From a virus (lineage: Duplodnaviria; Heunggongvirae; Uroviricota; Caudoviricetes): a stretch of 64,000 bases of DNA. The stretch lies in the IMG/VR virus record IMGVR_UViG_3300020451_002055. The stretch is one strand, 5' to 3'. Under the pieces are notes generated by a model. It saw only the letters and a program-made list of their open reading frames with translations. It ran no database searches and was not told where the DNA came from. Positions 4,427-60,506 of the stretch are shown here, piece after piece (the stretch's first letter is position 1; each line of letters opens with the position of its first letter). The translations under genes were made by a program, and so were the position numbers.

Positions 4427-4481
4427 CCTCGACTCCTTTCGGGATACGCTGCAATCCTAGCATATTCGGTGATGGGCTGCC

Positions 4482-4495: not shown

Positions 4496-4502
4496 TCCGG
4501 GC

Positions 4503-4525
4503 GCAAATAAAAGGGGCAGAGCCCC
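4503..4525 (-). terminator. putative rho-independent terminator
   Basis: Minus strand GGGGC-TCT-GCCCC followed by TTTTATTT. Confidence 0.4.
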
Positions 4526-4610
4526 TTGGAGAAGTCAACGCACCATCCAGCAACAAGCAAGGAGAGGTGGTCTGAATGCTTCTTTTGAGTGCCCGCAGGT
4601 TGGTAGAGAG

Positions 4611-4642
4611 AAAAGGGGCGGGCCTTGCGGTAGACCCGCCCC
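4611..4642 (-). terminator. rho-independent terminator downstream of 4670..5257 gene
   Basis: Minus strand GGGGCGGG-12 nt loop-CCCGCCCC followed by TTTT, 28 nt after the stop. Confidence 0.6.
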
Positions 4643-4669
4643 CTTGGGGATTCTGTCAGCCGTCAGGCG

Positions 4670-5257
4670 TTAGCCGATGGCCTTGAGAGCGGCCTTGGCC
4701 TCCCTCGAACCGGCAGCGGTCAGGGCGTAGACGCCGCGGCTGACGCGCTTGAGGTGGCCGTCGTTGACGAGGTTGCCGAGGGCCTGGTTGACGACCGTCC
4801 GCTGGCCCTTCTCGTCGCCGGTGAAGACGTAGTTGCAGGGCTTCGTCTGGACAGCGGCATGGACCTCGGAGATGTTGAACTCGGTCCCGCGCTCGCTCTG
4901 ATCCATCGAAATCAGGATGCAGTTGGAGAGGGTAGCCGCGCCGCCGCCGCGCTTCTCGCTCGCGCCGTTGCTGGTCCTCGTCGAACGCCGACGCGCCTTG
5001 GGAGCGGGCTCGGGATCCTCGTAGAGGTAGTCGATGGCCGAGAGATCGGGAGCCTCGAACTCCTCGACGCCGAACTCAGCGAGGCCGTCGTCGATCTGGC
5101 CCAACTGACCGGCGAGAGCCGTCATCTGCTCCATGACCGAAGCGCGAGCCTCGTTCAGATCGTTCATCGCCGCCTCGCGACGCTCGTTCGCGCCGGTGAT
5201 GGTCGCCGAAATGTCCAGGGTCGCCGCCGACCCACCGTTCTGGTTCTTGCCCGCCAT
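4670..5257 (-). CDS. hypothetical coiled-coil / basic protein, possible winged-helix DNA-binding C-terminus
   Basis: ATG at 5257 (MAGKNQ) with AAGGAG RBS. Coiled-coil N-terminus, Arg/Lys-rich linker and C-terminal globular domain. The track's longer N-terminal extension is unlikely. Confidence 0.5.
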   Translation of the reverse strand: MAGKNQNGGSAATLDISATITGANERREAAMNDLNEARASVMEQMTALAGQLGQIDDGLAEFGVEEFEAPDLSAIDYLYEDPEPAPKARRRSTRTSNGASEKRGGGAATLSNCILISMDQSERGTEFNISEVHAAVQTKPCNYVFTGDEKGQRTVVNQALGNLVNDGHLKRVSRGVYALTAAGSREAKAALKAIG

Positions 5258-5512
5258 GGTTTGTCTCCTTGTTGACTTGCGGACTCTGATGCTGCGTTGG
5301 ACGACGTTGCCCAACGCTGTTGACGAGATACATTTGATCTCGCCAGTATTCGGTGAACATCTCAATCTAGAACAGCCCTTCTGAGAAGTCAAGAAAATCT
5401 TTCTGAGAATCCTCAACTTAGCCGTTAGGGTTCCGTCCAGTCAGCCTAGATAAGAAAAGCCCCTCCAACCTTAGATCAGAGGGGCTTGAGAGTTTAGAAG
5501 ATGCGTGCCTGC

Positions 5513-6805
5513 TTAGTTGAGCAAAGTCAGGTCGCGCTCGGTCTGACGATGAGGCAGGACGAACTCATTGACCCGAGCCGCCATGCTGGTCTCGAACGCC
5601 GTCCGGTTGAACCCGTGATCGGCAACGCCGGTGATACCGCCGTCATACATGGCGAACGTCAGAGCCTTGTCCTCGGCGTTGCGGCGAGCCGCCATCGAAC
5701 CGAGGCCCTTGGCGGCATCGGTCATCAGGTTAAAGACATCCCATTCGGTTGCCAACTCGTCATCGCCGTAGGCGTTCTTGCCGAGGTCGTGGCAACGCTC
5801 GTAGAACTCCTCGTTGATGTCGCCGCGGTCGCGGATGATGCCGAGGACATCGAACGCCGACTTCTCGCCGTCGCCGATCTGACGATGCTGCAACGCCTGA
5901 AGCGAAGTAGCGATCAGACCCGCAAACGGGAATGCGATCGAAGCCATCGAATCGAGCGATGCCTTGACATCCTCGAACGTCGTGGAACGCCGCATCTGGA
6001 ACGAACCGAACGCGAAGTCCTGATCCGTGCAGCCGTTGGCGCACCACATTCGCCAGACGCCGATGGATGCCCGAGGCATGAACGCCCGGACATCGGACGT
6101 AGAGAGGTTGAGCATCGTGTAGAGCCGCTTGGTCGGCTCTCGCTCAGACTCGATCATGATGGGGTTGCCGAAGAGGATTCGGAACTCCATGCCGCCCTGA
6201 CTGTTGGACTCGAACATCTCAACGCCGCGGATGATATCTCCGAAGCGCTCCATGATCGCCCGCATCGCGTTCGCGACGAAGATGTTGGAATCGGTACGGT
6301 CGATGTCGTCGCGCATAACGCCCTCGACGATCCGGCCCGTCCCGCTGTCGTTCGTGCGGAACATCAGGTTGAAGTCATCCGAACGGCGTGCCCGGAAGAA
6401 CGACGCGAAGTCGGCGAGGAAGTGGCGAGGGCCATGCTCGCCCATCTTCTGATAGCGGCTGTAGCCGCCCTTGGCATCCATCAAGCCCGCAAGCTGATTG
6501 ACAGCCCGGTTGGACATGGGAATCGGGCCATGCTCTCGAACATGGAGCCCGAGCCCGGCATCGATGTCGGGCGCGATGCTGAAGAGGGAATCGGAAGAGG
6601 GATCGATCTGGAGCCCAAGATGCTCGCCGCCCTCGACAAGCAAGTCCTGGCGACCATTGGCGATGCGGTTGAGCCGATTGAGACAATCGGTCGGGTGCAT
6701 CATACGGCGGGTCACGTTGTCCGTGACATCGACAGGGCGATCGTCCGTGACGAAGCGCTCCTGATCCCCTTCCATGATGGTCGGGATTTCTGCATACGTC
6801 GGCAT
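5513..6805 (-). CDS. hypothetical protein (430 aa)
   Basis: ATG at 6805 with AGAAAGGAAACC RBS. Protein-like; no motif recognised, and a capsid assignment cannot be supported. Confidence 0.5.
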   Translation of the reverse strand: MPTYAEIPTIMEGDQERFVTDDRPVDVTDNVTRRMMHPTDCLNRLNRIANGRQDLLVEGGEHLGLQIDPSSDSLFSIAPDIDAGLGLHVREHGPIPMSNRAVNQLAGLMDAKGGYSRYQKMGEHGPRHFLADFASFFRARRSDDFNLMFRTNDSGTGRIVEGVMRDDIDRTDSNIFVANAMRAIMERFGDIIRGVEMFESNSQGGMEFRILFGNPIMIESEREPTKRLYTMLNLSTSDVRAFMPRASIGVWRMWCANGCTDQDFAFGSFQMRRSTTFEDVKASLDSMASIAFPFAGLIATSLQALQHRQIGDGEKSAFDVLGIIRDRGDINEEFYERCHDLGKNAYGDDELATEWDVFNLMTDAAKGLGSMAARRNAEDKALTFAMYDGGITGVADHGFNRTAFETSMAARVNEFVLPHRQTERDLTLLN

Positions 6806-6997
6806 TAGGTTTCCTTTCTGAGAGTGGGTCCGTCTTAGCCGAACTGATTGCCGGACAACGCTGCCCGGCTGACAGCATACAGTATAGCAGACTTGGATTC
6901 GGTGAGCAAGCCACCCGTCAAATAGACAACGCCCGGGCATAGTGCCCGAGCGTTGCGCCCAAAGGATGCTTGTCTGAGGCAGCCTAGGGTCTGGTCT

Positions 6998-8368
6998 TTA
7001 CTCGGCCTCAGCCTCAGCCTCAGGCTGGCGAACAGCCGGGCGACCGCTGGCTCCCTCGATCGCGGCGAGGATGCTCGCAGCCGTCGAGCCGGACGAATGG
7101 CCGCCCGTCCGAGATGAGAGACGGGTCAGGTCGGGCTTGTCAGGGGCGGTCATCACCTTGCCCTCGTCAAGCTCGATCGTCTTGGGGCCATGCTTCCAAC
7201 GGACAGGCTTCAACTTCTCGCCGCCGCGATTCTTGTCGAAGATCAGGTTGACCCGAGCGTCGTTATGCTCATCGGGAGACCCGAGAATGATTGCATCGAC
7301 CGAGTGCCCGAACATCGACGAACCCTTCAACTCGCCCGAGGACTTCGAGATATGCGAGATGATGAACGCCGTGCACCCGGTTTCAACCAGCATCTCGTTG
7401 AAGCGGAGCATGCCATCGCGAACTCGACCATCCGGACCCTGGAACTCATGGATCATGTCCTTCGAGTCGATGACCAAGAAATCAGGTTCATCTCGGCGGA
7501 CAAGGAACTCGACCTCATCGAGCAAACCGACCTGTGCGAAGTCAACGGCGACCTGACCGGGCTTCCAAACGCCTCGCAGGAACATCGAGCGGAAGCGGGC
7601 CATCTGGGGAACCTCAGACTGGATGTAGAGGCCGGTATGTCCGCCGAACTCAACGCCGTCCTCGCGGGTCTGACGCGGGCCGCACATGTCGCGGAGCAAA
7701 CGAACCATCAAGCGGGTCTTGCCCGTTCCCTTCTTCGCGCCGAAAGCATACGAGAAGCCGCGAGCGATGCCATGAGACTCGACCTCGACAGGCTTGCGCT
7801 TGCCCTTGGGAACGATCTCATCGACAGTCGTGCCGAACCATTGATCGAGAACCGGATGGAAGGTCGGGATACGCTCGATCGGCACATCCTCGCCCTCTTC
7901 CCAACTGACAGTCTCGGCTCCGCCGGTTCGGGCAACAGCCGAACTCCGGGCCTCAGCCGCCCGCCAACCGTCCTCGACCTTCTTTCGGGTCTGGCGAACC
8001 TGCTCGCGGAGACGCTGGTTGCGGAGCTTATGGTACGCATCCGCATCGGTCAGCGTATCGCCGTCGAGCAGAGCGGCCCAAGCCTTGCGGCCCTTCTCGC
8101 TCGTGCTGCGCTTGATCTGATCGTTGATGTAAGCGACCCGATCGCCAGTCGTGGGGATATCCCAACCATACTGGTCGGCGATCGCGTTCCGCTCGCCATC
8201 GTCGAGGATCGCGTCGAGATTGTCGCGCTGACGAAGCAGATGCTCCATGATCTCGGCGTTGGCATTCGCGCCGACCATATTGTGCATCGTGATCAGATTC
8301 TCGATGAGTGCCTGATTGCTCAGAGATGCGGTTCGAAGGGCGGGCTTGGGCTTTGACTGACGGGCCAT
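6998..8368 (-). CDS. DnaB-like / RecA-fold replicative helicase ATPase
   Basis: Walker A FGAKKGTGKT, Walker B FLVIDS, SQL-like IISHISKS and H4-like DKNRGG. ~200-aa N-terminal domain. ATG at 8368 with AAAGGAG RBS. Confidence 0.55.
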   Translation of the reverse strand: MARQSKPKPALRTASLSNQALIENLITMHNMVGANANAEIMEHLLRQRDNLDAILDDGERNAIADQYGWDIPTTGDRVAYINDQIKRSTSEKGRKAWAALLDGDTLTDADAYHKLRNQRLREQVRQTRKKVEDGWRAAEARSSAVARTGGAETVSWEEGEDVPIERIPTFHPVLDQWFGTTVDEIVPKGKRKPVEVESHGIARGFSYAFGAKKGTGKTRLMVRLLRDMCGPRQTREDGVEFGGHTGLYIQSEVPQMARFRSMFLRGVWKPGQVAVDFAQVGLLDEVEFLVRRDEPDFLVIDSKDMIHEFQGPDGRVRDGMLRFNEMLVETGCTAFIISHISKSSGELKGSSMFGHSVDAIILGSPDEHNDARVNLIFDKNRGGEKLKPVRWKHGPKTIELDEGKVMTAPDKPDLTRLSSRTGGHSSGSTAASILAAIEGASGRPAVRQPEAEAEAE

Positions 8369-8442
8369 GGGAAACTCCTTTGGGTTTGGGTTGCGTGCCT
8401 CAGACGACCTACAGCCCTTGCCTCTCGGTTTCGGTGAACCCA

Positions 8443-9165
8443 TCAGCCCTCCGCCTCTGCTTTGACCTTCTCTCCTGTACTGGTAGTAGAGGCCTTGCCG
8501 ACAGCCCTCTCAACCGCAACAGCCATGCTCTCCGAGCCGCCAGTACCCTCCGTCACCGAATATCCCGCCCGAATCTTGACTGACGGAACATACGACCTGC
8601 GACGAATTTCGCGGATGGGAAGAACTTCCTCCCCAGTCGGAATCCCCGTCCGCAAACGGAGACGCATCTCCTGCTGAGTCCCAAGGACATCAATGCAGGC
8701 ATTCAACTGAGCGAGCTTCAGCCCATAAGGGTTGGCTCCGCCCAATCGCTGAAGAACACGGATGTTCTGATGAACCTTCTCAATGACGTTCTTCCCAGTC
8801 ACTTGCGACCGGAGAGGACGCCCCGTGAACGACTCCCATGGCGTCTTGCCGTCCTTCCCAACCAAGGAAGGATCAGTCATGACCTCCATGAACTTCGCCC
8901 AAAACGCAGCAAACGAATGCTCCTCGTTCTCGCCCAACAGAGAGAGCGTCTCAACGATGCCCCAGTAACCGCCTCCTCTGCGGTAAGGAGCAACGAAGCG
9001 CCCCGCCTCGTCTGCTTGGCCTCGGAACTTCGCCTGATCATCCATGCTCATGTGGTGGCGACGAACTCTGCCCATCTCTCCGGTCCTTGTAGGTACTGTC
9101 TCAGCACGCTGACTAATAGGCAATGCCGCTTCAGCAGCGTGATCCGAGTAAACTGTCTTGCTCAT
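8443..9165 (-). CDS. hypothetical protein, paralog of 58338..58889
   Basis: Shares KDGK...L(Q/T)R(L/S)GG(A/S)NPYG(L/K)(K/R)L and YW.I blocks with the 58338 ORF. Probable ATG at 9165. Confidence 0.45.
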   Translation of the reverse strand: MSKTVYSDHAAEAALPISQRAETVPTRTGEMGRVRRHHMSMDDQAKFRGQADEAGRFVAPYRRGGGYWGIVETLSLLGENEEHSFAAFWAKFMEVMTDPSLVGKDGKTPWESFTGRPLRSQVTGKNVIEKVHQNIRVLQRLGGANPYGLKLAQLNACIDVLGTQQEMRLRLRTGIPTGEEVLPIREIRRRSYVPSVKIRAGYSVTEGTGGSESMAVAVERAVGKASTTSTGEKVKAEAEG

Positions 9166-9273
9166 TGTTGATGCGTCCCGTAATCGGTGTCCGACCAGGC
9201 TCCAAGTCCTGCTAACGCCAGACGCATTCAACACCCATCTTACTTGATCGCTATTACACCAGCGAGCCTCCTT

Positions 9274-9287
9274 CACCCATCTTTCTC
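9274..9287 (+). promoter_or_regulatory. conserved intergenic 14-mer CACCCATCTTTCTC (copy 2)
   Basis: Exact repeat in the divergent intergenic region between the minus gene ending at 9165 and the plus Fic gene. Confidence 0.3.
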
Positions 9288-9324
9288 TACCCGCGAATTC
9301 CCGCACTCATCTTACCCGAAGCCG

Positions 9325-9338
9325 CACCCATCTTTCTC
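9325..9338 (+). promoter_or_regulatory. conserved intergenic 14-mer CACCCATCTTTCTC (copy 3)
   Basis: Exact repeat 103 nt upstream of the plus-strand start at 9441. Confidence 0.3.
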
Positions 9339-9440
9339 CACTGTCAACCAATAGAGACAAACCGGTCCGAATAGCCCTTGGGCATCGACTTCGCGGAACA
9401 AATGCGGAGAGATTGGGGCGGCTGACTTCCATTATACCAA

Positions 9441-10250
9441 ATGTCGGACCATGCGTGTCCGGACCATGAAAAAATCGTCACTCGGTCTGCAGATTTTTGT
9501 CGATACACAGGTATGACTGAACTCGATCCGACAACCATGCGCGTATTCCCAGAGCCGTCCCAGGACACGCTCATCGCATTCATCTACCATACCAACCGAA
9601 TCGAACGTATCCCGATGAATAAGCGCGACATCGAGGACGCCATCGCCCAAAGAGAACCAAACCCCTACGTCGAAGGACATCTCCGCGCCATCACCCTCGT
9701 ACAACAACTCGCTCCCGATCCAAAACTACTGCCCGAACGGGTAAACACAATCTTCGAGTTCGATGAGAAGTTCCCATGGCTCAAAAGACTCCACCGCAAC
9801 CTCATGAGACCGGTCGCCGAGTTCGGAGTCATGACCCTCGACCCCTCAATCATCCATCCAACCGATGTCGGCTCCTACCGACAAACAGCCAAGTCCATCA
9901 GAACCGAACGAGACAACATGATCATCGATGTCGAAATGCCAGGACCATTGACCATCAGAGAACATCTCCGAGATTGGGCCAACGACCTCTGCTCCTTCCA
10001 TAATGACATGCGACGAACCATCGAGTACGGTCGCTACTCAGACAGCGATACCGAAGCCCTCGTAGATAAGGCCTACGAAGCAAACCTCAAGCTGTCCTGC
10101 ATCAAACCATTCACGGATGGCAGCAACAGAACAGGACGACTCGTTGAGAATCTGCTCAGACTCAACTGGGGACTGCCTTGGAAAATCATCAGCCTCGATG
10201 ACAAAGATCAACTACTCGATGACCTACGCAATATGCAATCGAGATTTTAG
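9441..10250 (+). CDS. Fic/Doc (Fido) family protein with degenerate active-site motif
   Basis: CIKPFTDGSNRTGRLVENL aligns to HPFx(D/E)GNGRxxR with H->K, N->S and G->N substitutions. It is the only plus-strand gene in this 10-kb stretch. Confidence 0.5.
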   Translation: MSDHACPDHEKIVTRSADFCRYTGMTELDPTTMRVFPEPSQDTLIAFIYHTNRIERIPMNKRDIEDAIAQREPNPYVEGHLRAITLVQQLAPDPKLLPERVNTIFEFDEKFPWLKRLHRNLMRPVAEFGVMTLDPSIIHPTDVGSYRQTAKSIRTERDNMIIDVEMPGPLTIREHLRDWANDLCSFHNDMRRTIEYGRYSDSDTEALVDKAYEANLKLSCIKPFTDGSNRTGRLVENLLRLNWGLPWKIISLDDKDQLLDDLRNMQSRF

Positions 10251-12103: not shown

Positions 12104-13402
12104 TTAGAAGCCATATCCGTCATCTGGATCGTCCTCATCTTGGTTGCTTATTGCCCATCGTCTGAGGGCCTCATCTTTGGCATCGATCTTGGGTTTGAGG
12201 TGTTGTCTGTAGAGGCTGCTATTCTTCCCTGCTTTGACGATGATTCCGTTCCTCTTGGCCTCCCTACAGAAGTCTGTCGAGGCCTTGACGAACCCTCGCC
12301 TTTCGAGGACATATCCCGCTCCCTCTTCAGCCGTCTCAAGCCTCGTAAACTCTAGTACAACTTTTGACTGTTCTATGAGTCTTTCGGGCATGTAATCATG
12401 GAAGGGCATGGTCTCATATACGGACCTCAGGATGTAGTCTGCGGCATGGGCCATGGACGCATATCCGAAGGCCACGCAGTCTAGCGATTGAGCTATCCGA
12501 CCGGAGTATAATCTTTGGCAGTTGTGGTTATCTGAGACCAAGCTCTTCTTGCTCTGGCATGCTTCGAAGAAGTTGAGGGCGTCCTCGTATCTTGAGATGG
12601 GATCGAGGGTTCCTTTGAGGGCTGCTGAGGAGGTAGCTTCGATGGCGACATGGCGGTTGCCGTCCCTGTTAAACTTTCCCGGTATGAAGGGAGTCGGGAG
12701 GGCAGCCGTTACTGTCTGCGGCGTTGCTATGTAGCCTCCGGGTCTGACCTCAAGATCATCGAGATCCGGCTGCTGAATTACTTCAACTTTTGGCAGTATC
12801 TCGTATCCTTGCATGGTCAGGATCGAGGCATACGAAGCTATGAGATTGGCGACGATGGAGAGGGCTGGTTCTCTCAGAGTTCTCTCGTTGTGTTCTCTGA
12901 GTCTGAGTAGTCCGAGGGGTATGACGTTGGGTAGTCCTGATCCTTCGTTGTTTCGTTCTTGGGTGACGAGTTCTTCTGAGATGAGGGCAACGATCCCGAT
13001 GTCTGTGGTGTTGAAGTATCCTGAGCCATCTCTTTCGATGACGGAGGCTTTGATGACTGAGGCGATCATCGGGGAGTTGATTTGGAGTATTTGTTCGAGT
13101 TCGTATGGTGAGAGGGCGTTCATGGGGGCGGGCACGACATAAGCTGCTCCCTGAGCGGACATATACTCGAAATCGCAGTTTTTGAGATACTCAGACGTAG
13201 AAACGACCCCATCCATGAACTGAGGGTCTTTCTTGGCTTGTTCTGCTCTCTCAGCTTCCATTTCAGCTATCTTCTTCTTCCTACCGTATTCTTGGGAGAT
13301 AGCCATGTTTGATCTTCTCTGATGCATCTTCTGGTTCATGTGGGTCATGTTATTGGACTTCCCGAGGCTTTGGAGTCTTTTGATGAGATCGTAGCGGGAC
13401 AT
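12104..13402 (-). CDS. hypothetical protein (432 aa)
   Basis: Long ORF with protein-like composition in the lower-GC segment; no motif recognised. Confidence 0.5.
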   Translation of the reverse strand: MSRYDLIKRLQSLGKSNNMTHMNQKMHQRRSNMAISQEYGRKKKIAEMEAERAEQAKKDPQFMDGVVSTSEYLKNCDFEYMSAQGAAYVVPAPMNALSPYELEQILQINSPMIASVIKASVIERDGSGYFNTTDIGIVALISEELVTQERNNEGSGLPNVIPLGLLRLREHNERTLREPALSIVANLIASYASILTMQGYEILPKVEVIQQPDLDDLEVRPGGYIATPQTVTAALPTPFIPGKFNRDGNRHVAIEATSSAALKGTLDPISRYEDALNFFEACQSKKSLVSDNHNCQRLYSGRIAQSLDCVAFGYASMAHAADYILRSVYETMPFHDYMPERLIEQSKVVLEFTRLETAEEGAGYVLERRGFVKASTDFCREAKRNGIIVKAGKNSSLYRQHLKPKIDAKDEALRRWAISNQDEDDPDDGYGF

Positions 13403-46758: not shown

Positions 46759-47037
46759 ATGCCACGCAAAAGGAAGATCATAGACAAACAGTCGTTCAAG
46801 AAGTCTTGCGGTAAATGCCTCATATGCGGCGAAGACAACTATGACCTCCTAGATGTCCATCGGATCGTTCCCGGCTCTGAGGGAGGCAGATACACGAAGG
46901 ACAACAGCGTTACTCTCTGCTCCAACTGCCATCGTCGAGTCCATGCTGGCGAGATAGACATACACAGATACTACAACTCGACCGCCGGAACGGTCTTGCA
47001 TGTAACTCTGCAAGGCGAAGAGAAGTTTCTCAGGTAA
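46759..47037 (+). CDS. HNH endonuclease
   Basis: CGKCLICG ... H ... CSNCHRRVH zinc-finger HNH arrangement. Confidence 0.8.
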   Translation: MPRKRKIIDKQSFKKSCGKCLICGEDNYDLLDVHRIVPGSEGGRYTKDNSVTLCSNCHRRVHAGEIDIHRYYNSTAGTVLHVTLQGEEKFLR

Positions 47038-47383
47038 CGTAAGAGGCAGAGATGGGAGACCCTACTCTCTCGCTCAGATCAGCCCAGTTCTCTGTCACGA
47101 ATACCCCTTGATCGGCAAGAAACTCATCGATCGTCTCATATGTAGTTGAGTTGAGTATGTAGGCGTTCAGTCTACGAGCAGCAGGTAGCAACGAGTTCGT
47201 AGCGCCAATGCGATTAGCATCATACGTTGCTCTGAACGTGTCGAATAGTTCGATTTTGACATCCGGATCATCAATGAGGATGACGTTCAACAATCCGTCG
47301 TAGAGTCCTGCGACCATGGAATCGATGTTCGCGGCTGCGTTGCCGTAGATCGTTGAAAGTTCCGCATAGACGGATGCCTGCAC
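47030..47383 (-). CDS. ORF possibly representing the frameshifted C-terminus of the upstream structural gene
   Basis: Protein-like translation. It starts where the upstream frame becomes non-protein-like, and its frame stays open for about 10 codons upstream of the GTG. Confidence 0.35.
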   Translation of the reverse strand: MQASVYAELSTIYGNAAANIDSMVAGLYDGLLNVILIDDPDVKIELFDTFRATYDANRIGATNSLLPAARRLNAYILNSTTYETIDEFLADQGVFVTENWADLSERVGSPISASYVT

Positions 47384-49263
47384 GGAAAAGGGTTCGCCAT
47401 TGGCTGATCTCCTTCAGAGACTTCGGCATACAAGCCCTGGGCGTCTCCTTCAAATGCCCATGTATTCAGCCTTTCTACTGCCGCTGACGCAGATGTTCCC
47501 CAAATATAGACGCCTTGGAACTGGCTAAGGCCGTCCCCAACCCGAAGAGCAAGCTCCATCTGAGCATCAAAAACCTCTTGCGAGGAGTAGTTGCCAGCGG
47601 AATCAACTCGGATAGCAATCCAGAATGGTATATCTGCATATTCGGCCATATACCGAGTTATCCTTACTCGATTCTTGAAGCCGCCGAAAATAGAGTCTGT
47701 TAGAAGATGGTCAGTTCTTGATACCGCATCCGTGCCCGGATTCTCTGTAGGCTCAAGGTTGTAGTCCCAGTAGAACGGGCAAACCATGCCTCCATTCTGA
47801 GTAAAGACCGCAAGATCAGCCTTATCCTCAAGATCCTGCTTGCTGACCCAGTTGTTTTGAGGACGCTCCCAACTTGCTATCGCCTTATTGCCAAACCCTC
47901 GAAGAGGAAGCTCGATGCCTATTTCTTCTCGTTGAAAATAGGAGAAGAAACCAATGGGAGCTTCGATGTTTTCGGCTCCGCCGTCATGCGTAACGGTATG
48001 TTCAAGATCGATAACCGCAAGCGGCAAGTCTGCATCGCTTATATTGGCAACCCCATCCATGCCATTGCTATAGGTTATCGCTCTGCCAATATCCTTGAAG
48101 GCAACCCTTCTGTAGCCAAGCCTTAGTCCTGATGGATTGGCGGAACCCGTATCAGTAATGATTCTGTCATCCTCGGGTCCATTAGTCGGATTGATACCCA
48201 TCATTGGTATAAAGTCAGCGATACCCGGAGCCCCAACTTGCGACTGCTGAATCCAGTTGGCATTGATGAAGTTGGGATGTTCGTATTGAAGACCAGAAGG
48301 CAATCCTGCTCTATATGTCGGACCTCCTCCTCCTGACCCGATGTAGACCTTCGGTCCAACATCCGAGTAACGAGAAAGACCTCTGAAGCCGGTAACATCA
48401 GAGGTCAAATCCATTGCATCAAAGAGACGGAAAGGCCTGAAGCCATGAGAGGCTGCCTGCTGATAACTGATCGCTCTCGAATAGCCTAGATGAGAAAATA
48501 CCGCGGGCGAAGTAAACGCTGAACCGCTTGACTCATTCGAGTAAAGACGAGGCGTAGCAGATGTGGCTCCGCCAGTATGAGTCAGGTCTTGTTCGATCAA
48601 GGGCTCCCAAGAGACGAAGCCATCATTCGGGGCAACTCCGATCAAATGCTCTCCTAGGTTGTTGCCTGTTCTCGTTGTGGGATCGTAGTCGCCCGGATCG
48701 TAAGTGAAATCGCCGCCCTCTTCATAAACCCAAAGCCTTGCGAACGATCCATCTCTCTCAAATATGATGACGTAATCCTGACCAGGAGTAACTACCCCGG
48801 CAGAGGTAGAGGCCGAGTTCGAGTTGCTCGATCCATCTCCAAGCTCGACAGTAAGAGCATATGATGAGTCAATGGTAAGCCGGTAGTTTCTCTCAGTACC
48901 GGCAGTATTCCAGTCCTCAACAATAACTTGATCGGTAGATACCGTTGGAATGCGGCATGCTATGACATGAGTAAAATCCCCTGCGAACTGCAAAACGGTA
49001 GGGTCGCTAACTGCTAGGCCAGTTTCAGAAGATATGTTGAGTCCGTTGCCAAACGAGGCGCTTGTTGTTGGAACGGATGTTGTTGTTACTGAAAAACTAG
49101 CGCCTTCTGGTTCATAGTTATCGCCAGAGTTATACGCAGGCAATACAGCAAACTCCAGGTTTGTTGTAAAATCAAGCTCGTTGTTATTGATAGTCGTGAA
49201 CGATGGAACGGAAGGGATAGCCTTCCAGTTCATAGGGAACGTTTGAGCGGTAATAGTCGCCAT
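47287..49263 (-). CDS. structural protein with N-terminal LamG/concanavalin-like domain (putative fibre/receptor-binding or glycan-acting protein)
   Basis: 658 aa, Ser/Thr/Gly-rich and beta-rich. The last ~36 codons are low-quality, which suggests a frameshift near 47395. Confidence 0.55.
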   Translation of the reverse strand: MATITAQTFPMNWKAIPSVPSFTTINNNELDFTTNLEFAVLPAYNSGDNYEPEGASFSVTTTSVPTTSASFGNGLNISSETGLAVSDPTVLQFAGDFTHVIACRIPTVSTDQVIVEDWNTAGTERNYRLTIDSSYALTVELGDGSSNSNSASTSAGVVTPGQDYVIIFERDGSFARLWVYEEGGDFTYDPGDYDPTTRTGNNLGEHLIGVAPNDGFVSWEPLIEQDLTHTGGATSATPRLYSNESSGSAFTSPAVFSHLGYSRAISYQQAASHGFRPFRLFDAMDLTSDVTGFRGLSRYSDVGPKVYIGSGGGGPTYRAGLPSGLQYEHPNFINANWIQQSQVGAPGIADFIPMMGINPTNGPEDDRIITDTGSANPSGLRLGYRRVAFKDIGRAITYSNGMDGVANISDADLPLAVIDLEHTVTHDGGAENIEAPIGFFSYFQREEIGIELPLRGFGNKAIASWERPQNNWVSKQDLEDKADLAVFTQNGGMVCPFYWDYNLEPTENPGTDAVSRTDHLLTDSIFGGFKNRVRITRYMAEYADIPFWIAIRVDSAGNYSSQEVFDAQMELALRVGDGLSQFQGVYIWGTSASAAVERLNTWAFEGDAQGLYAEVSEGDQPMANPFPCRHPSMRNFQRSTATQPRTSIPWSQDSTTDC

Positions 49264-49304: not shown

Positions 49305-49715
49305 TTAGATGTCAACAGGAGGAAGAAGTACATGGCGGAACCAGAAGTCTCCAAGCCGTTGCATCTGATCTGAGAACTCATCGAAATTGCCGCTCTTCGT
49401 CAGATAAGCATTGGCTCCAAGTTCGTAAGAGAGCTTTATGTCTTCAGGATTTATCGATGTCGATATGACGATTACGGGAACCTTTTTGTACCTAGGATCC
49501 TGCTTGATACTGGTAAGAACTTGTCGTCCGTCAATCTTTGGCATGTTGAGATCCAAGAATATGATATCTGGAAGAGAGGCGGAAATAGAACTCATGGCCT
49601 CTTCTCCGTTCAATGCGCGACGATAACGGAACTCAATATCCTCAGGAAGGGTCTCTTGCATAAGTTCAACGTCGCCATCATCATCTTCTACTATCAACAG
49701 GTCAAATATCTTCAT
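49305..49715 (-). CDS. stand-alone response-regulator receiver domain protein
   Basis: LLIVEDDDGD, IIFLDLNMPKIDG and PVIVIST...K CheY-like signature; 136 aa. Confidence 0.8.
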   Translation of the reverse strand: MKIFDLLIVEDDDGDVELMQETLPEDIEFRYRRALNGEEAMSSISASLPDIIFLDLNMPKIDGRQVLTSIKQDPRYKKVPVIVISTSINPEDIKLSYELGANAYLTKSGNFDEFSDQMQRLGDFWFRHVLLPPVDI

Positions 49716-49723
49716 GCTTCTCT

Positions 49724-50155
49724 CTACATGGAGAGCAGTCGAGAAATCTTGGAGTTCAATCTCTCTACTTGCTCTCTGAACAAACTGATGGATTCGCCCG
49801 ACTTGACTACAGAGGACACATCCATATCGTCCTTTTCAATAAAGCCGTCTACTCGCAAGTTGATCAACTTACGCAAAGTGTCTTCCTTGGCCTGACCGGA
49901 CAGAATGAACACTTTGCTGTCGTTATCCTTTGCTCTGATAGATTTTGCGATTTCGACGCTCATTGACTTGCCGCCGAACATATCATCTACGAGATATATG
50001 TCATATGAGAAGTCGATTTTGGCTGAGTCAAACTTTTCAACGTGATCAATGACGAACTCAAGCTCGTGATTGGCTTCGTCAAGATACTCGGAGATCAGTT
50101 CAAGTACGTCAGCATCATCGTCGATGAGAAGTATTTTGATAGTGTTGTTAGCCAT
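49724..50155 (-). CDS. stand-alone response-regulator receiver domain protein
   Basis: ILLIDDDADV, DIYLVDDMFGG, VFILSGQ...K; 143 aa. Confidence 0.75.
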   Translation of the reverse strand: MANNTIKILLIDDDADVLELISEYLDEANHELEFVIDHVEKFDSAKIDFSYDIYLVDDMFGGKSMSVEIAKSIRAKDNDSKVFILSGQAKEDTLRKLINLRVDGFIEKDDMDVSSVVKSGESISLFREQVERLNSKISRLLSM

Positions 50156-51962
50156 AAATGGACTCCGTTGTAAACCAGAAGGTGGAACCTTCTTTTTCTT
50201 TAGACTCTGCTCCTATAACCCATCCATGACGTTCGCATACTCGGCTGCAAGTTGCAAGGCCTATGCCGTTGCCACCGTATCGCTCTCCGGTATGCAATCT
50301 TTTGAATGGTTCAAAGATTTGATCCTTGTATTGCGGGTCGAAGCCGATACCGTTATCTTTGACGAAGAGGGCTCCAATTCCTTCATGCTGACCATGCCAT
50401 ATCCGTATCTGAGGCTGCCTTGAATCATCCCTATACTTAATGGCATTGGAGACGATATTGAATACAAGGCTTCTTAGCAGAGGTTTGCAAGCCTTGATAG
50501 TGGGCAGCTTTTCTACTTTGATTCGGGCATCGGACTCCACTATGACTGTGGCGATGTCTTCAAGAGCATCGGCAACAATCTCGTTGAGATCAACTTCTTC
50601 TAGTTCTAGATTTGTAGTATTGACCCGAGAAAGAGCTAGAAGGTCGTCGATCTGCTGTTGCATCTTGCGAGCGCCTTTGATCATATGTCCCATGAAGCGC
50701 TTCTCTTTATCCGTTAGCTTATCGCCAAGGCTTTTCTCTAGCAGGTCTCCAAATGCGGTTATCTTGCGCAAAGGCTCTCGAAGGTCATGAGATGCGGCAT
50801 AGGCGAATCTGGCAAGTTCAGCATTCGCCTTTTCTAGACTGTTTCTCATGGATACTTGATTGCTTACATCCATGATGCATCCAACTATATGAACGACTTG
50901 TCCTTTGTCAATGATAGGCTGACCTATGCATCGAACCCATAGTCTTGAGTTTTTTGCGGTTACGAATGGAAGCTCAAGGTCGTATGGCTGACCTTTTTCG
51001 ATCGCATTCTCAAGAGCTTGAGATATTTGATGTCTAGCTTCTCCTGGGAAAAAGTTGAGAGCCCCTTGCTTATTGATCTGATAGTCATAAGGCACATCAT
51101 GTATGTCATAGACGGTATTCGACCATGTGATTTCATCATTCTCTACGACGTACTTCCATCCGCCAATTCTTGTAAGAGACTGAGTTTGATCTAGAAGCTC
51201 TTGACTATCTCTGAGTTTGATGCGAGCTTCATATTCACTAGTCATATCGATATTTATACCTATGAGTAGCTTCTTGTTTTCAAATTCAATGACTTTGCCT
51301 CTTGCATAGATATACTTGACTCCTGAGTTAGCTCGAATGCGGAACTCGGATTCAAATATACCTGTATCTTCTATAGCCTTCCTAACATCTTCCTCTGCCT
51401 TTTCTACATCAGAAGGATGAATAACTCTTTTCCAGTCGTCGTAAGAGTAGACTTCTTTTTCTTCTGCCTCATAGAGGCTGATCATATGCCTATCCCAGGT
51501 AAGATCATCAGCGCCGATTTCCCAAGACCATGTTCCAGTCTTAGTTGATTCAAATGCAATATCCTTGATCTTATGCAACTGAAAAAGCTCATTAGTAAGG
51601 TCTTCTATCTCTTTTCTGTCTTGAATCTGAGCAATGTATTTGAGGGTCTTTTGTCCATCATCAGATACAATGCGAGAAGCTGTCAAGATGATGGGTCTTT
51701 CGGTTCCATCTTCAGCTATGTATCTTTTTCTAAGATTGTATCTGTCTATCTCTCCGGCATTCAATTGCCTGAGAAAATTAAGATCGGCATCGAGGTCATC
51801 GGGATGAGTTATATCTTGGAATGTTCCATTGAGAAGGTTTTCTGCTGAATGACCAGATATCTCGCAGAATGCATCATTTACGCGCAGAAACTCTCCATCG
51901 AGTCCTACTATAGCTATGCCTATACCGGCATTAGAAAACGCGCTCTCAAAAAGTTTGCTCAT
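50148..51962 (-). CDS. soluble sensor histidine kinase with three PAS domains
   Basis: H-box AASHDLREPLRKI. HATPase_c N/G boxes VSNAIKY and DNGIGF ... GGNGIGLA. No TM segment. Confidence 0.85.
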   Translation of the reverse strand: MSKLFESAFSNAGIGIAIVGLDGEFLRVNDAFCEISGHSAENLLNGTFQDITHPDDLDADLNFLRQLNAGEIDRYNLRKRYIAEDGTERPIILTASRIVSDDGQKTLKYIAQIQDRKEIEDLTNELFQLHKIKDIAFESTKTGTWSWEIGADDLTWDRHMISLYEAEEKEVYSYDDWKRVIHPSDVEKAEEDVRKAIEDTGIFESEFRIRANSGVKYIYARGKVIEFENKKLLIGINIDMTSEYEARIKLRDSQELLDQTQSLTRIGGWKYVVENDEITWSNTVYDIHDVPYDYQINKQGALNFFPGEARHQISQALENAIEKGQPYDLELPFVTAKNSRLWVRCIGQPIIDKGQVVHIVGCIMDVSNQVSMRNSLEKANAELARFAYAASHDLREPLRKITAFGDLLEKSLGDKLTDKEKRFMGHMIKGARKMQQQIDDLLALSRVNTTNLELEEVDLNEIVADALEDIATVIVESDARIKVEKLPTIKACKPLLRSLVFNIVSNAIKYRDDSRQPQIRIWHGQHEGIGALFVKDNGIGFDPQYKDQIFEPFKRLHTGERYGGNGIGLATCSRVCERHGWVIGAESKEKEGSTFWFTTESIYG

Positions 51963-52468
51963 GGCTTCTGAGTATTACCTGTAACTGGCTGAGTGTTTGA
52001 AGGAGGAGTAGTGCCCGCCGGATTCTGCGGTTGAACGATACCGGCTGGCTGTTTCGTCTGCGTCCATCCAGCGACTCTGCTAAGAGTTATGAACGCTCCG
52101 GCGATCGTTGCCAAAGCGACAATCAGAGCAATGGCTCCTCTGAACCACATGCCCTTCTTACGGATATCTTTGAGAACCTCATCGATCTCTTTGGCTCTCT
52201 CTCGATGCTCTTTGATTTCATCAAACAGGTCTTCAAATTTATCGAGAAGCTTTTCATAGTCTTTGCGAGACTTGGATGTCTCATCTGACATGTGCTTCTT
52301 GATGTCATCCTTGAGGCCGTTCTTTAGTACAGTAAGAACTTCGGAGACTTCTCGCCGTTGCTCTTCTTGGAGAAACTTGACATGTGTTAGCTTCTCTGTG
52401 GCCTTGATGTTCTCATCAACGACCCGCTCTAAAAACTGGATGATTAGCTGGTTTTGTTCCATAGACAT
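51959..52468 (-). CDS. coiled-coil protein with C-terminal TM helix
   Basis: 169 aa. Confidence 0.45.
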   Translation of the reverse strand: MSMEQNQLIIQFLERVVDENIKATEKLTHVKFLQEEQRREVSEVLTVLKNGLKDDIKKHMSDETSKSRKDYEKLLDKFEDLFDEIKEHRERAKEIDEVLKDIRKKGMWFRGAIALIVALATIAGAFITLSRVAGWTQTKQPAGIVQPQNPAGTTPPSNTQPVTGNTQKP

Positions 52469-52552
52469 AAGGCATCCCCTCTCGGTATTATCACTTTCGT
52501 GAATCCGAGAGGGGATTCCTCCTGCAAGCCGGTAACAAAGGGCTCTAACAGT

Positions 52553-54163
52553 CTACTCGAAGTCCGGCAACATGAAAATGTTGCATTCCTTCGGTATATT
52601 CTGTCTGGCGTTGTCAGACAAGAACCAGTACCATTTGTCTGGAACGGCGGGCCGGATATCGGTCCCATAACCGTCCGTGATAACGAAGATAGCTTCCGGA
52701 TGGCGAGAGATTTCTCCCGTCCTCAACTGTTTCTGAACATGCTCTTCCAAGATGTGGAAGTGAGTACCTCCAAAGCCGTAAAGCTCGCCCTCTTCAAGAG
52801 AGGCCTTGTAAATCTTGGTATCGAAGCAATAAAGCTCGACATCAAACCGGTCCGTAGGCAGCGATCTTGCAGCGGCAAAGAATCGATCCCTAAAGCCGTA
52901 ACAGGAGCCAGAAGTATCCTGATAGAAGCGGACTTTGATTCGAGTCTCGGACTTGTCCTCAACTTCCTGCTCGGTCGGAAGCATCAAGGATGGGGCAATC
53001 TGCGAATAGCGACGAGCCCTACGGGTCCACTGCTCTTCGTCCTTATCCTTTTCCTTGTATTTGCGAGACCATTTCTTGATGACGGTCTCCCATTTGCGCT
53101 TCTTGGATACTCGATGATGCAGGTTGGCCTTGTAGACAATGCGACCAGCAACAGAACCAGCTTGTTTGCCGCCAGGGTTGCCGCCATCCTTGTCGCCTCC
53201 GCCTTCCTCCGCTTCCTTAGCCTTGCGTTCGGCCTCGTTCTCTTCGGCGGACTGAGCAGCATTGCCGTCCTCAGACTGATGCACTTTCTCGGCCAGGTCT
53301 CTCTTCTCGTCATCATCAAGCTGATCGTTGATAGCGTCGGAGATTTCTTCCTTCGCGCGATCATCCTCGAAGTCTTCAAGACGATTATGGTCGTCAAGGG
53401 TCTGACCGGTAACTTCCTGCCATCCATCGCTATCGCCGGAGCCATCTCCGTCGCCTTGCTGACCAGAGCCCTGTCCTTGGCCTCCCTGACCTTTCATGCC
53501 GCCCTTGCGGATCATCATTTTACCGCTTGGCATCATCTTCATGTTCTGCTCAAGCATGCGGTAGTAGTATTCGAAAGGCTTTTCCCTTTCGATGATGTTC
53601 TCAAGACCAGGATAGACAGTATCGATCCAGCAAAGGTCGATGGGTTCGCCAGCCTTTTCATGACCCTCGGGATACTGTCCAATGTCAATAGACTTGCGGT
53701 CAAAGCCAAACTTCGACACAAGCATATGGTTGACAACGACATCCAAGGCGCGGTTCGCTACCTCGGGAAGAGGACAGTCCCTTGTCCTCAATCCGTGGCT
53801 GAGCATGACATGAAGAACCTCATGGCAGATGATGAAACACTTCGTGTACCTGTCCGTTTTCTTCCAAAACAGAGGATTGAAAAGGAACTCAGTATTCCGT
53901 CCCTCGGAGTCAAACGCAACCGCCGCGGTAGGCAAGTCCCAGGTCAGTCGAGGGATGCCCATCTCCCAAAGCTGGCAGAAAACGCCATGATGCTTTTCAA
54001 GCTCTAGAGCGATAGAGTTGAACTCCGCTCTAATGTCTTGAGCTAGAAGTGCGTCTGCCTCTTCATCCGTCATTCCCTTTGGTCGAACGTTGAGAACGGT
54101 ATCCTGTACCGCCCCTCTATTCTTGGGGCCTTTGCTCTTCGGGATGTCTTTCGTTTCGCTCAT
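52553..54163 (-). CDS. VWA-domain protein with N-terminal HExxH metallopeptidase-like domain (DUF2201/CobT-like)
   Basis: HEVLHVMLSH in the N-terminal domain. Central Gly/Gln/Asp-rich linker. C-terminal MIDAS-like DTSGSC. Confidence 0.6.
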   Translation of the reverse strand: MSETKDIPKSKGPKNRGAVQDTVLNVRPKGMTDEEADALLAQDIRAEFNSIALELEKHHGVFCQLWEMGIPRLTWDLPTAAVAFDSEGRNTEFLFNPLFWKKTDRYTKCFIICHEVLHVMLSHGLRTRDCPLPEVANRALDVVVNHMLVSKFGFDRKSIDIGQYPEGHEKAGEPIDLCWIDTVYPGLENIIEREKPFEYYYRMLEQNMKMMPSGKMMIRKGGMKGQGGQGQGSGQQGDGDGSGDSDGWQEVTGQTLDDHNRLEDFEDDRAKEEISDAINDQLDDDEKRDLAEKVHQSEDGNAAQSAEENEAERKAKEAEEGGGDKDGGNPGGKQAGSVAGRIVYKANLHHRVSKKRKWETVIKKWSRKYKEKDKDEEQWTRRARRYSQIAPSLMLPTEQEVEDKSETRIKVRFYQDTSGSCYGFRDRFFAAARSLPTDRFDVELYCFDTKIYKASLEEGELYGFGGTHFHILEEHVQKQLRTGEISRHPEAIFVITDGYGTDIRPAVPDKWYWFLSDNARQNIPKECNIFMLPDFE

Positions 54164-55782
54164 TAGATCTCAATGCCTTCGAGTTCTTCATCCTTGGTTT
54201 CGATCCATTCAGCCTGAGGCTTAGGTTCGACGATCAACTCTCCGACATTGTTCGGAAGAGACTTGTTCTTCTTGCTAAAGAAGCTGAAGAAGAAATAGGG
54301 GCAGAGGTCGAACAACTCTTCAACAGTAAAATCAGGTCGCTCTTGCAAGATGCAATGAACAGCCGTGTTGAAGCAGATCGGGAACTGATCCATCTCGCTC
54401 AAAGTTTCGGCATGATGGACAGAAGCGATGAAGTTGCAGATACGGACAAGGGCAATAGCCTGATCCGCGCTCAACTGGTCAGTGGCAACTTCGGTCAAAG
54501 ACTCGTAGAGCTTGCCTCTCAACCAGTGATTTGTTGCCGACATGGTTTTGGTAGCCATGTCATGAATTGCCGCTTCAACATCGTTGCCATCGTATTCGAT
54601 GCTCGATATGGAGAAGTCATCCTTGAAGCGGAAGTTCTTCTTCATATGAGACTGCTCAGCCTTTGTGAAGTGCTTCGGCAAGCTCTTTGAGTTATCGATA
54701 ACGACGTTAGCAATACCGCCTTCCGAATCATCATTATCATCCATCTGGTCAAGAACCTTGGCAATGGCCTCGAACTCCTTCTTGAGCTTCTTGTGCTGAG
54801 CGCCCTTGGCCAGGTCTTTGATGACATTCGCATACTTGCGAGGATTGCGAACAATCTCTTCCTTGATCGCCTTGTTCTGAGTCATCAGGTTGGTAAGAAG
54901 CTCGTCGCCAAGCAACGGAAGAGCAAAGCTGCGAACCTCATCGTCCTCAACGATCAGGGTCTTGATGCCGTCGAGGTTGTTCATGTGACCAAGCCAGCGG
55001 CGAGCGGCGGCGGTGTCATCCTGTTTCATGAAACGACGGAAAGTCTCTTCAGGAGGGCCATGCTGAACTGCCTCAAGCAGCTTGGCAACCGGAGCCTTCG
55101 AGGGCAGGACATGGCGCATGTTACCGATATCATTGAAGACCTGCAAAGCATAGTCTAGACGACGAGGGGATATCATGCGCTGCATGGCTTCCGGCAACCC
55201 TTCCCACCAGTCAACCGCAGCCTTGCCGGTTTCCGTCCCGTAGCTGCGCTGGAAGTATGCGAGATCCGGCTTGTAAGGAATTTCAACCTGAATCTGAAAA
55301 CGGTCTTCCTGAGCCGGATCGAGAGGTTCAACGTCGAAGTCAAGATCGTCATCATCTTCGGGGTTGACGGCAGTCCAGATGAGTTTGAGGTTCGGGAACT
55401 CTCGACCGTTGATGGACTTGAACTGAATCAACTCCATGACGGCGTTACGAACCTTCTTCGGTGCCCGGTTGAACTCGTCGAAGAAGAAAGCCTCAACAGA
55501 GCCATCTGCCATATCCCTCGGCAGCACGAAATCAAGGAACGTCAGATCGCCCTCATTGCGTTCTTTGGGAACGCCAACGAAGTCGGTCCAAGGGTCCATG
55601 GTGGCTGCGGAAAAGTATCGCCATTTCAGGTTGTTACGCTCAAACGCTTCCTGAATGCGATGCGTCTTGCCAACTCCGTGGCGACCGACGAACATCGCGT
55701 TGTACCCCTTCTCGATCCAGAAATCGAGATCATGATCGGTAATCTTTCCAATAAAATACTCACGCTTTTCGTTCGGCGGCAT
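54163..55782 (-). CDS. MoxR/CobS-like AAA+ ATPase
   Basis: Walker A FVGRHGVGKT, Walker B FFFDEFNRA. Adjacent to the VWA partner. Confidence 0.75.
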   Translation of the reverse strand: MPPNEKREYFIGKITDHDLDFWIEKGYNAMFVGRHGVGKTHRIQEAFERNNLKWRYFSAATMDPWTDFVGVPKERNEGDLTFLDFVLPRDMADGSVEAFFFDEFNRAPKKVRNAVMELIQFKSINGREFPNLKLIWTAVNPEDDDDLDFDVEPLDPAQEDRFQIQVEIPYKPDLAYFQRSYGTETGKAAVDWWEGLPEAMQRMISPRRLDYALQVFNDIGNMRHVLPSKAPVAKLLEAVQHGPPEETFRRFMKQDDTAAARRWLGHMNNLDGIKTLIVEDDEVRSFALPLLGDELLTNLMTQNKAIKEEIVRNPRKYANVIKDLAKGAQHKKLKKEFEAIAKVLDQMDDNDDSEGGIANVVIDNSKSLPKHFTKAEQSHMKKNFRFKDDFSISSIEYDGNDVEAAIHDMATKTMSATNHWLRGKLYESLTEVATDQLSADQAIALVRICNFIASVHHAETLSEMDQFPICFNTAVHCILQERPDFTVEELFDLCPYFFFSFFSKKNKSLPNNVGELIVEPKPQAEWIETKDEELEGIEI

Positions 55783-60434: not shown

Positions 60435-60506
60435 GCGGGCGTAACTCAATGGTAGAGTGTCAGCCTTCCAAGCTGAATGTTGAGGGTTCGAGTCCCTTCG
60501 CCCGCT
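60435..60506 (+). tRNA. tRNA-Gly (anticodon UCC), CCA not encoded
   Basis: Hand-folded cloverleaf. Acceptor GCGGGCG/CGCCCGC, D arm ACTC/GAGT, anticodon stem TCAGC/GCTGA with loop CTTCCAA, and T arm GAGGG-TTCGAGT-CCCTT. Confidence 0.85.

Follow-up and report, generated by a model that had tools for sequence, protein, structure and literature searches.

In a 64,000-nt stretch of DNA from the Caudoviricetes virus record IMGVR_UViG_3300020451_002055 (hereafter the window, meaning the whole stretch analysed), four adjacent genes on the minus strand encode a predicted coiled-coil membrane protein which we call 'up', a histidine kinase (HK), and two stand-alone receiver proteins, RR1 and RR2. With moderate confidence, we propose that these make up a self-contained His–Asp phosphotransfer circuit owned by a marine huge phage of about 0.5 Mb, and in our best reading of the evidence a phytochrome-type kinase core and its Rcp1-type partner would have been plugged into a receiver and membrane-protein pair specific to the phage. 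Bacteria do most of their sensing through two-component systems, and the usual assumption is that phages depend on those of the host; a complete circuit conserved across a clade of half-megabase ocean phages would mean that the virus measures the infected cell itself and acts on the result. Similar trios of genes are found in other IMG/VR contigs of 380–500 kb.

The four-gene unit

A preliminary description of this locus had recognised three co-directional and tightly packed genes, with the kinase stop at 50148 overlapping the start of the first receiver gene, and this was borne out by the open reading frames (ORFs) of HK (604 aa; 50148–51962), RR1 (143 aa; 49724–50155) and RR2 (136 aa; 49305–49715), all of which lie on the minus strand and have Pfam matches. 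The HK stop and RR1 start overlap by 8 nt, and RR1 and RR2 are separated by 8 nt, with a purine-rich stretch located 5' of the RR2 ATG. To these genes we add a 169-aa ORF, 'up' (51959–52468, minus), whose stop overlaps the HK start by 4 nt, and judging from the ORFs the locus is a four-gene unit in the order up–HK–RR1–RR2 with 'up' as the first gene. None of the four proteins reaches an equivalog cut-off in NCBIfam, and the kinase and receivers match families of 'unknown function' in PHROGs; such kinase and receiver genes are already in the databases, though uncharacterised.

HK had been described as a cytoplasmic PAS-PAS-PAS-HisKA-HATPase kinase, and Pfam finds these domains in this order, with no GAF or PHY domain in a sensor part made up of PAS only. 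PAS1 (residues about 4–115; 51618–51953, minus; PAS_9/PAS at 5–115) is followed by the accessory PAS2 and PAS3 of the PAS_3 type (residues about 130–245 and about 255–370; 50853–51575, minus), the HisKA/DHp domain at residues 383–448 (50619–50816, minus) in which the putative phospho-acceptor H392 (codon 50787–50789) occupies an invariant column, and the HATPase_c catalytic ATP-binding domain at residues 495–598 (50169–50480, minus). HK has no hydrophobic segment (maximum KD19 hydropathy of 1.23) and is therefore soluble. PAS1 is the sole PAS domain common to all of the HK orthologues, as gaps in the alignment show that PAS3 is missing from the orthologues on contigs L007 and L008, and both PAS2 and PAS3 from those on L009 and L120 (orthologues with three PAS domains are 601–604 aa long, those with two are 486–495 aa, and the single-PAS L009 and L120 proteins are 348 aa). 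On inspection, the PAS1 sequence lacks the LOV-type NCRFLQ motif, and the nearest solved PAS domain (8px4, E 3.8e-6) is too weak a match to suggest a ligand.

The H-box of HK (SHDLREPLRK, containing H392), the N box, and the DxGxG, FxPF and GxGxGL motifs are invariant in seven orthologues sharing 48–64% amino acid identity, and the invariant residues include H392, N506, D536, G538, G540, F550 (of FxPF), G564, G566 and G568. With its H-box and N, G1, F and G2 boxes all present, HK looks like a classical HisKA kinase. Among solved structures, the HK core is closest to chain 8f71 and the kinase modules of bacteriophytochromes, which points to a core of the phytochrome-associated HisKA type. When HK was compared with phages by tblastn, only kinase-core matches of about 25–30% identity were recovered, and many of these records resemble host contamination. 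The nearest cellular full-length homologues are ordinary PAS kinases from Bacteroidota and other phyla with 25–32% identity.

RR2 is a clear match to the Pfam Response_reg family (73.8 bits), with the predicted acceptor D55, the acidic pair E10/D11, S85 and K107, and a C-terminal GDFWF extension. Of the solved receivers, it is matched over residues 6–133 by RcpA (1k68, E 3.8e-27) and Rcp1 (1i3c, E 1.4e-24), compared with about 1e-9 to 1e-12 only for CheY and Spo0F, and the GDFWF motif aligns with the EEFWL/ESFWL of the RcpA/Rcp1 extension. By sequence we assign RR2 to the Rcp1/RcpA-type single-domain receivers, which are the usual partners of phytochrome-associated HisKA kinases. Since RR2 matches RcpA and Rcp1, and the HK core matches bacteriophytochrome kinases, the two are best seen as a phytochrome-type kinase and Rcp1-type receiver pair in which plain PAS domains take the place of the photosensory module. 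RR2 is kept in all of the orthologous loci that were aligned, and the acidic pair, acceptor Asp, Ser/Thr and Lys are kept in the orthologues of both receivers.

RR1 is a divergent receiver that scores just above the Response_reg cut-off (36.8 bits versus 30.2), and has a predicted acceptor, D57, which aligns with the acceptor Asp of ArlR, as well as the acidic residues D12/D13, S86 and K108. The AlphaFold model (pLDDT 88, pTM 0.83) is of a receiver fold minus alpha2 and with a 29-residue alpha5 helix (residues 114–142), and a Foldseek search with this model returned receiver domains only, including the coiled-coil-linker receivers of DctD, NtrC1, HupR and PorX. The RR1 family appears to be small, with 16 clusters recovered by a word-indexed search and 60 representatives at E≤1e-10 among 1.84 billion proteins in an exhaustive HMM search. 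The preliminary description held that neither receiver carries an effector or DNA-binding domain, and the domain search it had suggested as a check found Response_reg only in RR1 and RR2. As the RR1 model consists of a receiver and one helix, and RR2 aligns end to end with RcpA and Rcp1, neither protein has room for a cryptic effector.

The fourth protein, 'up', is predicted to be a tail-anchored coiled-coil membrane protein. Its AlphaFold model (pLDDT 69) has a long cytoplasmic helix (residues 2–105), a transmembrane (TM) helix (residues 108–133) and a disordered Pro/Gln-rich tail, and the hydropathy profile has a maximum KD19 of 2.37 at residue 111, indicating a single clear TM segment. The 'up' family comprises 34 clusters on contigs of up to 506 kb, and all but one of these clusters are without Pfam annotation. 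We also considered 'up' as a candidate Hpt phosphotransfer protein because of two conserved His residues; we rejected this as the protein is modelled as a single helix of about 100 residues plus a TM segment and not as a four-helix bundle, and the two His residues are not conserved in distant members of the family.

Relatives with and without the kinase

HK orthologues are 48–64% identical (alignment A1), after which there is an abrupt fall to the cellular PAS kinases. The order ATPase–VWA–'up'–HK–RR1–RR2, which includes the two genes upstream of the unit, is kept in five diverged contigs (L006–L009 and L120), and in each of these 'up' is directly 5' of HK. A recently captured bacterial cassette, carried as a decaying passenger without a role in the phage, might be suspected from the atypical composition of HK and RR2 and from the differing number of PAS domains among relatives. 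However, the same locus is kept in at least five lineages with HK diverged to the identities given above, all of the catalytic residues of HK and both receivers are intact, and the layout of overlapping starts and stops is conserved. With the gene order conserved, the HK motifs invariant and the receiver active sites intact, we regard this explanation as ruled out and give it very little probability.

A second group of relatives lacks the kinase. In L040, a 488-kb uncultivated viral genome collinear with the window, 'up' is followed directly by an RR1-like gene (12826–13248) and then by a homologue of the 658-aa gene found 3' of RR2 in the window, and both HK and RR2 are absent from this locus. 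The same pair, with 'up' directly 5' of the RR1-like gene, is found in L041 (RR1-like gene at 12843–13277), L042 (4673–5224) and L043 (3492–3968). At the kinase-less loci of L040, L041, L043 and L042 the acceptor has been replaced by G, A, E or K, and the acidic pocket is eroded too. The acceptor is Asp in the window clade and in the kinase-adjacent L013, which is a second locus of the L041 genome where an RR1 paralogue forms part of an HK–RR2-like–RR1-like cassette. Among the relatives examined, the RR1 acceptor Asp is kept beside the kinase and lost at the kinase-less loci. The locus is in effect a natural experiment, in which the RR1 phospho-acceptor varies between collinear relatives that have the kinase and those that do not, and this makes it testable how a pseudo-receiver and membrane-protein pair becomes wired to a kinase. 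We note that across the kinase-less RR1-like proteins (L040–L043 and P0127–P0133) the acceptor position is occupied by G, A, K, E, N or S, and that one subgroup has a 13-residue insertion before the conserved Lys; where the residue is Glu, the protein could be a phosphomimetic, 'locked' receiver.

The genes of the unit also differ in GC content at third codon positions (GC3), which is 0.40 in HK (0.35–0.38 in the PAS part, with PAS2 and PAS3 having the lowest values of the region, 0.36–0.38), 0.47 in RR2, 0.57 in RR1 and 0.51 in 'up', compared with 0.567±0.07 in backbone genes. By composition HK and RR2 are foreign, and RR1 and 'up' match the backbone; taken with the kinase-less relatives, this makes RR1 and 'up' phage backbone genes and suggests that HK and RR2 were acquired.

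Kinases related to HK are found more widely amongst the huge phages. A scan of IMG/VR with the HK alignment identified 29 viral contigs with such kinases, several of which are 380–640 kb, and many of the kinases have as neighbours an RR2-like gene for a receiver alone and a second, larger receiver (about 245–285 aa) in which Pfam detects REC only. In five contigs the extra 130 residues of this second receiver are a predicted helical region followed by a C-terminal TM segment, giving REC–coiled-coil–TM proteins encoded beside the kinase and Rcp1-like receiver genes (L011 4803–5573, L014 4904–5701, L015 4578–5312, L016 4268–5065 and L017 4251–5108), an output architecture for which there is no Pfam family. 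On these predictions, membrane-tethered receivers recur beside kinases in huge phages. These modules resemble the unit described here in being carried by huge-phage genomes and in grouping a kinase with two receivers, one of them Rcp1-like and the other linked to the membrane by a C-terminal TM, and differ from it in having the receiver and the coiled-coil/TM region in one polypeptide rather than in two adjacent genes; we treat the fused proteins and the RR1 and 'up' pair as an architectural parallel only. A third type of huge-phage receiver, found beside a short kinase (L019 7160–7954, L020 7174–7989 and L021 7162–7989), has REC followed by a soluble C-terminal region of about 140 aa without a Pfam match.

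In the circuit we propose, PAS1 would sense an intracellular cue during infection, such as a metabolite, redox or energy state, and HK would autophosphorylate on H392 and pass the phosphate to D55 of RR2 and D57 of RR1. The preliminary description had offered the sensing of host redox or metabolic state through the PAS domains as its alternative reading, and it is this reading which the evidence favours, with the sensing itself something we infer. Output would be by protein–protein interaction and not by transcription, with phospho-RR1 shifting its alpha4–beta5–alpha5 face and long helix so as to alter its association with the 'up' coiled coil at the inner membrane, and RR2 would act as a second diffusible output or as a phosphate sink within the circuit, making the response of RR1 sharper. 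Candidate downstream processes might be lysis timing, exclusion, or a link to the AAA+/VWA pair encoded upstream. More generally, and only tentatively, huge marine phages may have their own signalling pathway that ends in a membrane-tethered receiver, either split (RR1 and 'up') or fused (REC–coiled-coil–TM). Were this true, the physiological state of the infected cell would be read by a soluble PAS kinase, which would then govern something that happens at the membrane, for example the timing of lysis, the exclusion of superinfecting phages, or where an assembly or replication compartment is placed; viruses would thus encode a two-component system whose output, at the membrane and not by transcription, belongs to a new class.

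The circuit could instead be directed outwards, with HK and/or RR2 engaged in cross-talk with host PAS-kinase and Rcp1-type pairs and reprogramming host physiology, by phosphorylating a host regulator or draining a host kinase rather than by feeding an output internal to the phage. In favour of this reading, HK and RR2 look from their GC3 to have been horizontally acquired from cells, the nearest cellular full-length homologues are ordinary PAS kinases with the 25–32% identity noted above, and Rcp1-type receivers are common in bacteria. However, such low identity to any cellular kinase, with no NCBIfam equivalog reached, means that partner specificity had ample time to diverge; furthermore, HK has a gene specific to the phage on either side, in frames that overlap with its own, and the phage-only receiver RR1 retains its active site only when beside the kinase. 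We therefore consider this hijacking of the host network unlikely, though it deserves more weight than the other alternatives discussed here.

A number of points weigh against a phage-owned circuit. The correlation between the acceptor Asp and the kinase is drawn from about two independent kinase-adjacent lineages and about three kinase-less lineages, and the Asp is kept by about half of the 65 representatives of the RR1 family that were examined, taken without regard to their context. As the scan of IMG/VR used two peptide patterns, a different kinase may be present elsewhere in the L040 genome. We argue for phosphotransfer from HK to the receivers from just the 8-nt overlap, which suggests translational coupling, and the co-conservation of the genes, and like it the signal and the contact between RR1 and 'up' are inferred. 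Homology between 'up' and the C-terminal half of the fused REC–coiled-coil–TM receivers was looked for and rejected (hhalign probability of 1.3%). Finally, among the approximately 75 ORFs of the window we found no capsid, portal, terminase or tail gene.

Comparison with Detocs and other signalling systems

The preliminary description had likened the architecture of the three genes to the Detocs defence system, and suggested that the receivers might act as phosphate sinks that quench a Detocs-like system of the host; neither proposal survived closer analysis. In Detocs, DtcA is listed as 'TPRs + Histidine kinase' in the supplementary table of the preprint (bioRxiv 10.1101/2023.01.24.525353), DtcB is proposed to act as an internal phosphate buffer, and the preprint is silent on phage homologues (bioRxiv 10.1101/2023.01.24.525353). 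HK has PAS domains and no TPR is found in it by Pfam, and no REC-effector protein comparable with DtcC is encoded in the unit. We took the DtcB and DtcC proteins of Vibrio alginolyticus and Enterobacter cloacae from the same supplementary table for pairwise comparison by phmmer, in which RR2 scored 97 bits with RcpA, 89 with Rcp1, 38 with Spo0F and 36 with CheY, but no more than 7.5 bits with any Dtc receiver, and RR1 scored 12.8 bits with Spo0F and no more than 3.4 bits with any Dtc receiver. The Detocs reading of the receivers therefore fails, in the way that the preliminary description had itself named as counting against it. In the Dtc receivers, moreover, the acceptor is followed by an insertion of 8–15 residues, strand 4 carries the motif LTQ[YF], and strand 5 lacks the Lys; none of these features is shared by RR1 or RR2. 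Even at E≤10, PADLOC listed no Dtc model and only weak coiled-coil and receiver noise (it should be noted that the presence of Detocs models in PADLOC-DB 2.0.0 is unconfirmed). Given that the unit lacks both an effector domain and TPRs, and is not akin to Detocs in sequence, we conclude that it is not a Detocs.

There is nevertheless a superficial resemblance between the two in the three-gene layout of a kinase, a REC-only protein and a second REC protein, and a protein that consists of a receiver alone could formally serve as a sink, much as has been proposed for DtcB (bioRxiv 10.1101/2023.01.24.525353). It might be supposed from this that RR1 and RR2 drain a Detocs-like kinase of the host so that abortive infection is blocked, with the phage kinase optionally acting as a phosphatase to recycle them. 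Against such an anti-defence role, however, RR1 and RR2 score no more than 7.5 bits with DtcB/DtcC of two Detocs systems and are missing the insertion and LTQ[YF] motif, HK has PAS in place of TPR, and RR2 belongs to the Rcp1 family. RR1-like genes also persist at loci with no adjacent kinase and without the acceptor Asp, a loss which would be intolerable for a sponge, and a sponge needs no translationally coupled kinase of its own. An anti-Detocs sponge is thus scarcely credible, and a tempting but wrong annotation can be removed. The two systems further differ in that DtcC carries a PNP, hydrolase or TM effector with no counterpart here, and in that Detocs is found in bacterial defence islands rather than in a phage; nonetheless, the idea of a 'buffer' receiver may fit RR2 within the phage's own circuit.

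Closer parallels to the proposed phage circuit are provided by the Cph1–Rcp1 and bacteriophytochrome pairs of cyanobacteria, Deinococcus and Agrobacterium, which share with it a kinase core with the SHDLxEPLR H-box, a receiver with a C-terminal FW extension as in RR2, and output through a single-domain receiver without a DNA-binding domain. In contrast to these, the unit described here is virus-encoded, has plain PAS domains and no PAS-GAF-PHY photosensory module, and includes a second, unrelated receiver and a membrane protein in the same operon. Single-domain receivers that act by protein binding include CheY, DivK, CpdR and the CheY1/CheY2 of Sinorhizobium, and there are multi-receiver pathways in which one receiver is a sink. 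The unit resembles the latter in having one kinase and two receiver-only proteins, with output probably by protein contact and a possible sink receiver, but no partner gene of the chemotaxis, cell-cycle or protease kind lies close by and the conserved neighbour is 'up'.

In the searchable literature we came across no account of a phage encoding a complete two-component system, or of histidine kinases in huge phages. The huge-phage survey paper makes no mention of two-component systems or kinases, and in the jumbo-phage comparative review only a kinase-independent 'cREC' domain is discussed. The nearest documented case is the agrC kinase in the agr cassette (agrD–agrB–agrC) of Clostridioides difficile phage phiCDHM1, which is a documented example of a phage-carried histidine kinase (PMC3901668). 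AgrC is, however, a membrane-bound quorum-sensing receptor of the HPK10 type and, having no response regulator of its own, the phage must use that of the host (PMC3901668); here, the kinase is soluble and PAS-based, and both receivers are supplied by the phage.

Viral source and neighbouring genes

The exact HK is found on 14 contigs, assembled from Tara Oceans and other marine metagenomes, the longest of which is 486,961 bp (label TARA_150_DCM_0.22-3, NCBI WGS prefix MDSV01, from the 0.22–3 μm fraction), and independently assembled contigs match the window over 21 kb with no difference or a difference of 1 nt. Two viral genomes from IMG/VR, of 488 and 499 kb, have about 25 of the window's genes in collinear order, with 35–70% amino acid identity; these relatives were found by an alignment-based scan with the ATPase encoded upstream of 'up' (a scan of IMG/VR with the single ATPase sequence gave no match, and a megablast of window positions 47–56 kb against the INPHARED phages also gave none). 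By tblastn, 88% of the ATPase aligns at 35% identity with a protein of LR756511.1, a curated huge phage of 595 kb, and its identity to those of the jumbo phages phiRSL1 and BCSR5 is 42%. The genes of the window are dense, almost all on the same strand, and mostly without a family, and those with a family are typical of large phages, including RtcB, an RNA ligase, three DNA methylases, an HNH endonuclease, dCMP deaminase, UDG, a ClpP-like protease, ferritin, and a MoxR-like ATPase with a VWA partner. These comparisons give good support to a marine huge phage of roughly 0.5 Mb as the source.

As there is no virion hallmark gene in the window, the case for a phage-borne unit is well supported but comparative, and we have also considered whether the window might be cellular DNA, a chimeric assembly or some other giant element carrying an ordinary bacterial two-component system. 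Besides the missing capsid, portal, terminase and tail genes, such an origin might be argued from the 0.22–3 μm fraction, which is a cellular size fraction, and from the deviating GC content of the first 10 kb. However, the same bases were assembled independently from several samples by several assemblers, the window is collinear with the 488- and 499-kb viral genomes, and the ATPase/VWA pair is common to LR756511.1, phiRSL1 and BCSR5. Moreover, dense same-strand orphan genes are accompanied by RtcB, RNA ligase, Dam methylases, HNH, dCMP deaminase, UDG and a tRNA, and no ribosomal or other core cellular genes were found among the ORFs that were scanned. Any such non-phage origin is in our judgement most improbable.

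The genes which precede the unit are those of the MoxR-like AAA+ ATPase (54163–55782, minus) and the DUF2201/VWA protein (52553–54163, minus), both identified by Pfam and PHROG matches. This pair always precedes 'up' in this phage group (L006–L009, L040–L045 and L120–L122), and is conserved in more than 80 IMG/VR contigs as well as in phiRSL1, BCSR5 and LR756511.1. Between the VWA gene and 'up', at the 5' boundary of the unit, there is a GC-rich hairpin identified from the sequence and by RNAfold (52474–52516, minus; arms CCCCTCTCGG and CCGAGAGGGG separated by 19 nt), the 3' arm of which includes the 'up' Shine-Dalgarno sequence. In L007, L008, L040 and L120 a hairpin with a different stem sequence is found at the same place, followed by a T-run resembling an intrinsic terminator, and the hairpin may couple termination of the ATPase/VWA transcript to a low level of 'up' translation.

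At the other end of the unit, the 658-aa gene (47287–49263, minus) starts 41 nt after RR2 behind a strong GGAGG and has no family. Relatives carry in its place genes whose products range from 745 to more than 2,451 aa and match Big_5 or SWM_repeat (size-variable counterparts are found at L007 12280–14994, L009 11902–17385, L120 8355 onwards and L040 13268–15505), and this large protein is possibly a fibre or adhesin. Further downstream, a 92-aa HNH endonuclease gene (46759–47037, plus) lies on the strand opposite to all of its neighbours, and is found in the same place in L040–L045, L121 and L122.

Elsewhere in the window, a 623-aa SPFH/Band 7 protein (31058–32929, minus), a membrane-microdomain scaffold, is unusual cargo for a phage, and there is a single tRNA-Gly (TCC) at 60435–60506 (plus). 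Positions 1–10000 have a GC content of 55–61% compared with about 49% elsewhere in the window, and could be a compositionally distinct module or island; the ORFs here include a metallophosphoesterase (415–1110), a 530-aa HATPase_c_3 protein resembling MORC/GHKL proteins (2834–4426), and a weak match to a DnaB-like helicase (6998–8443).

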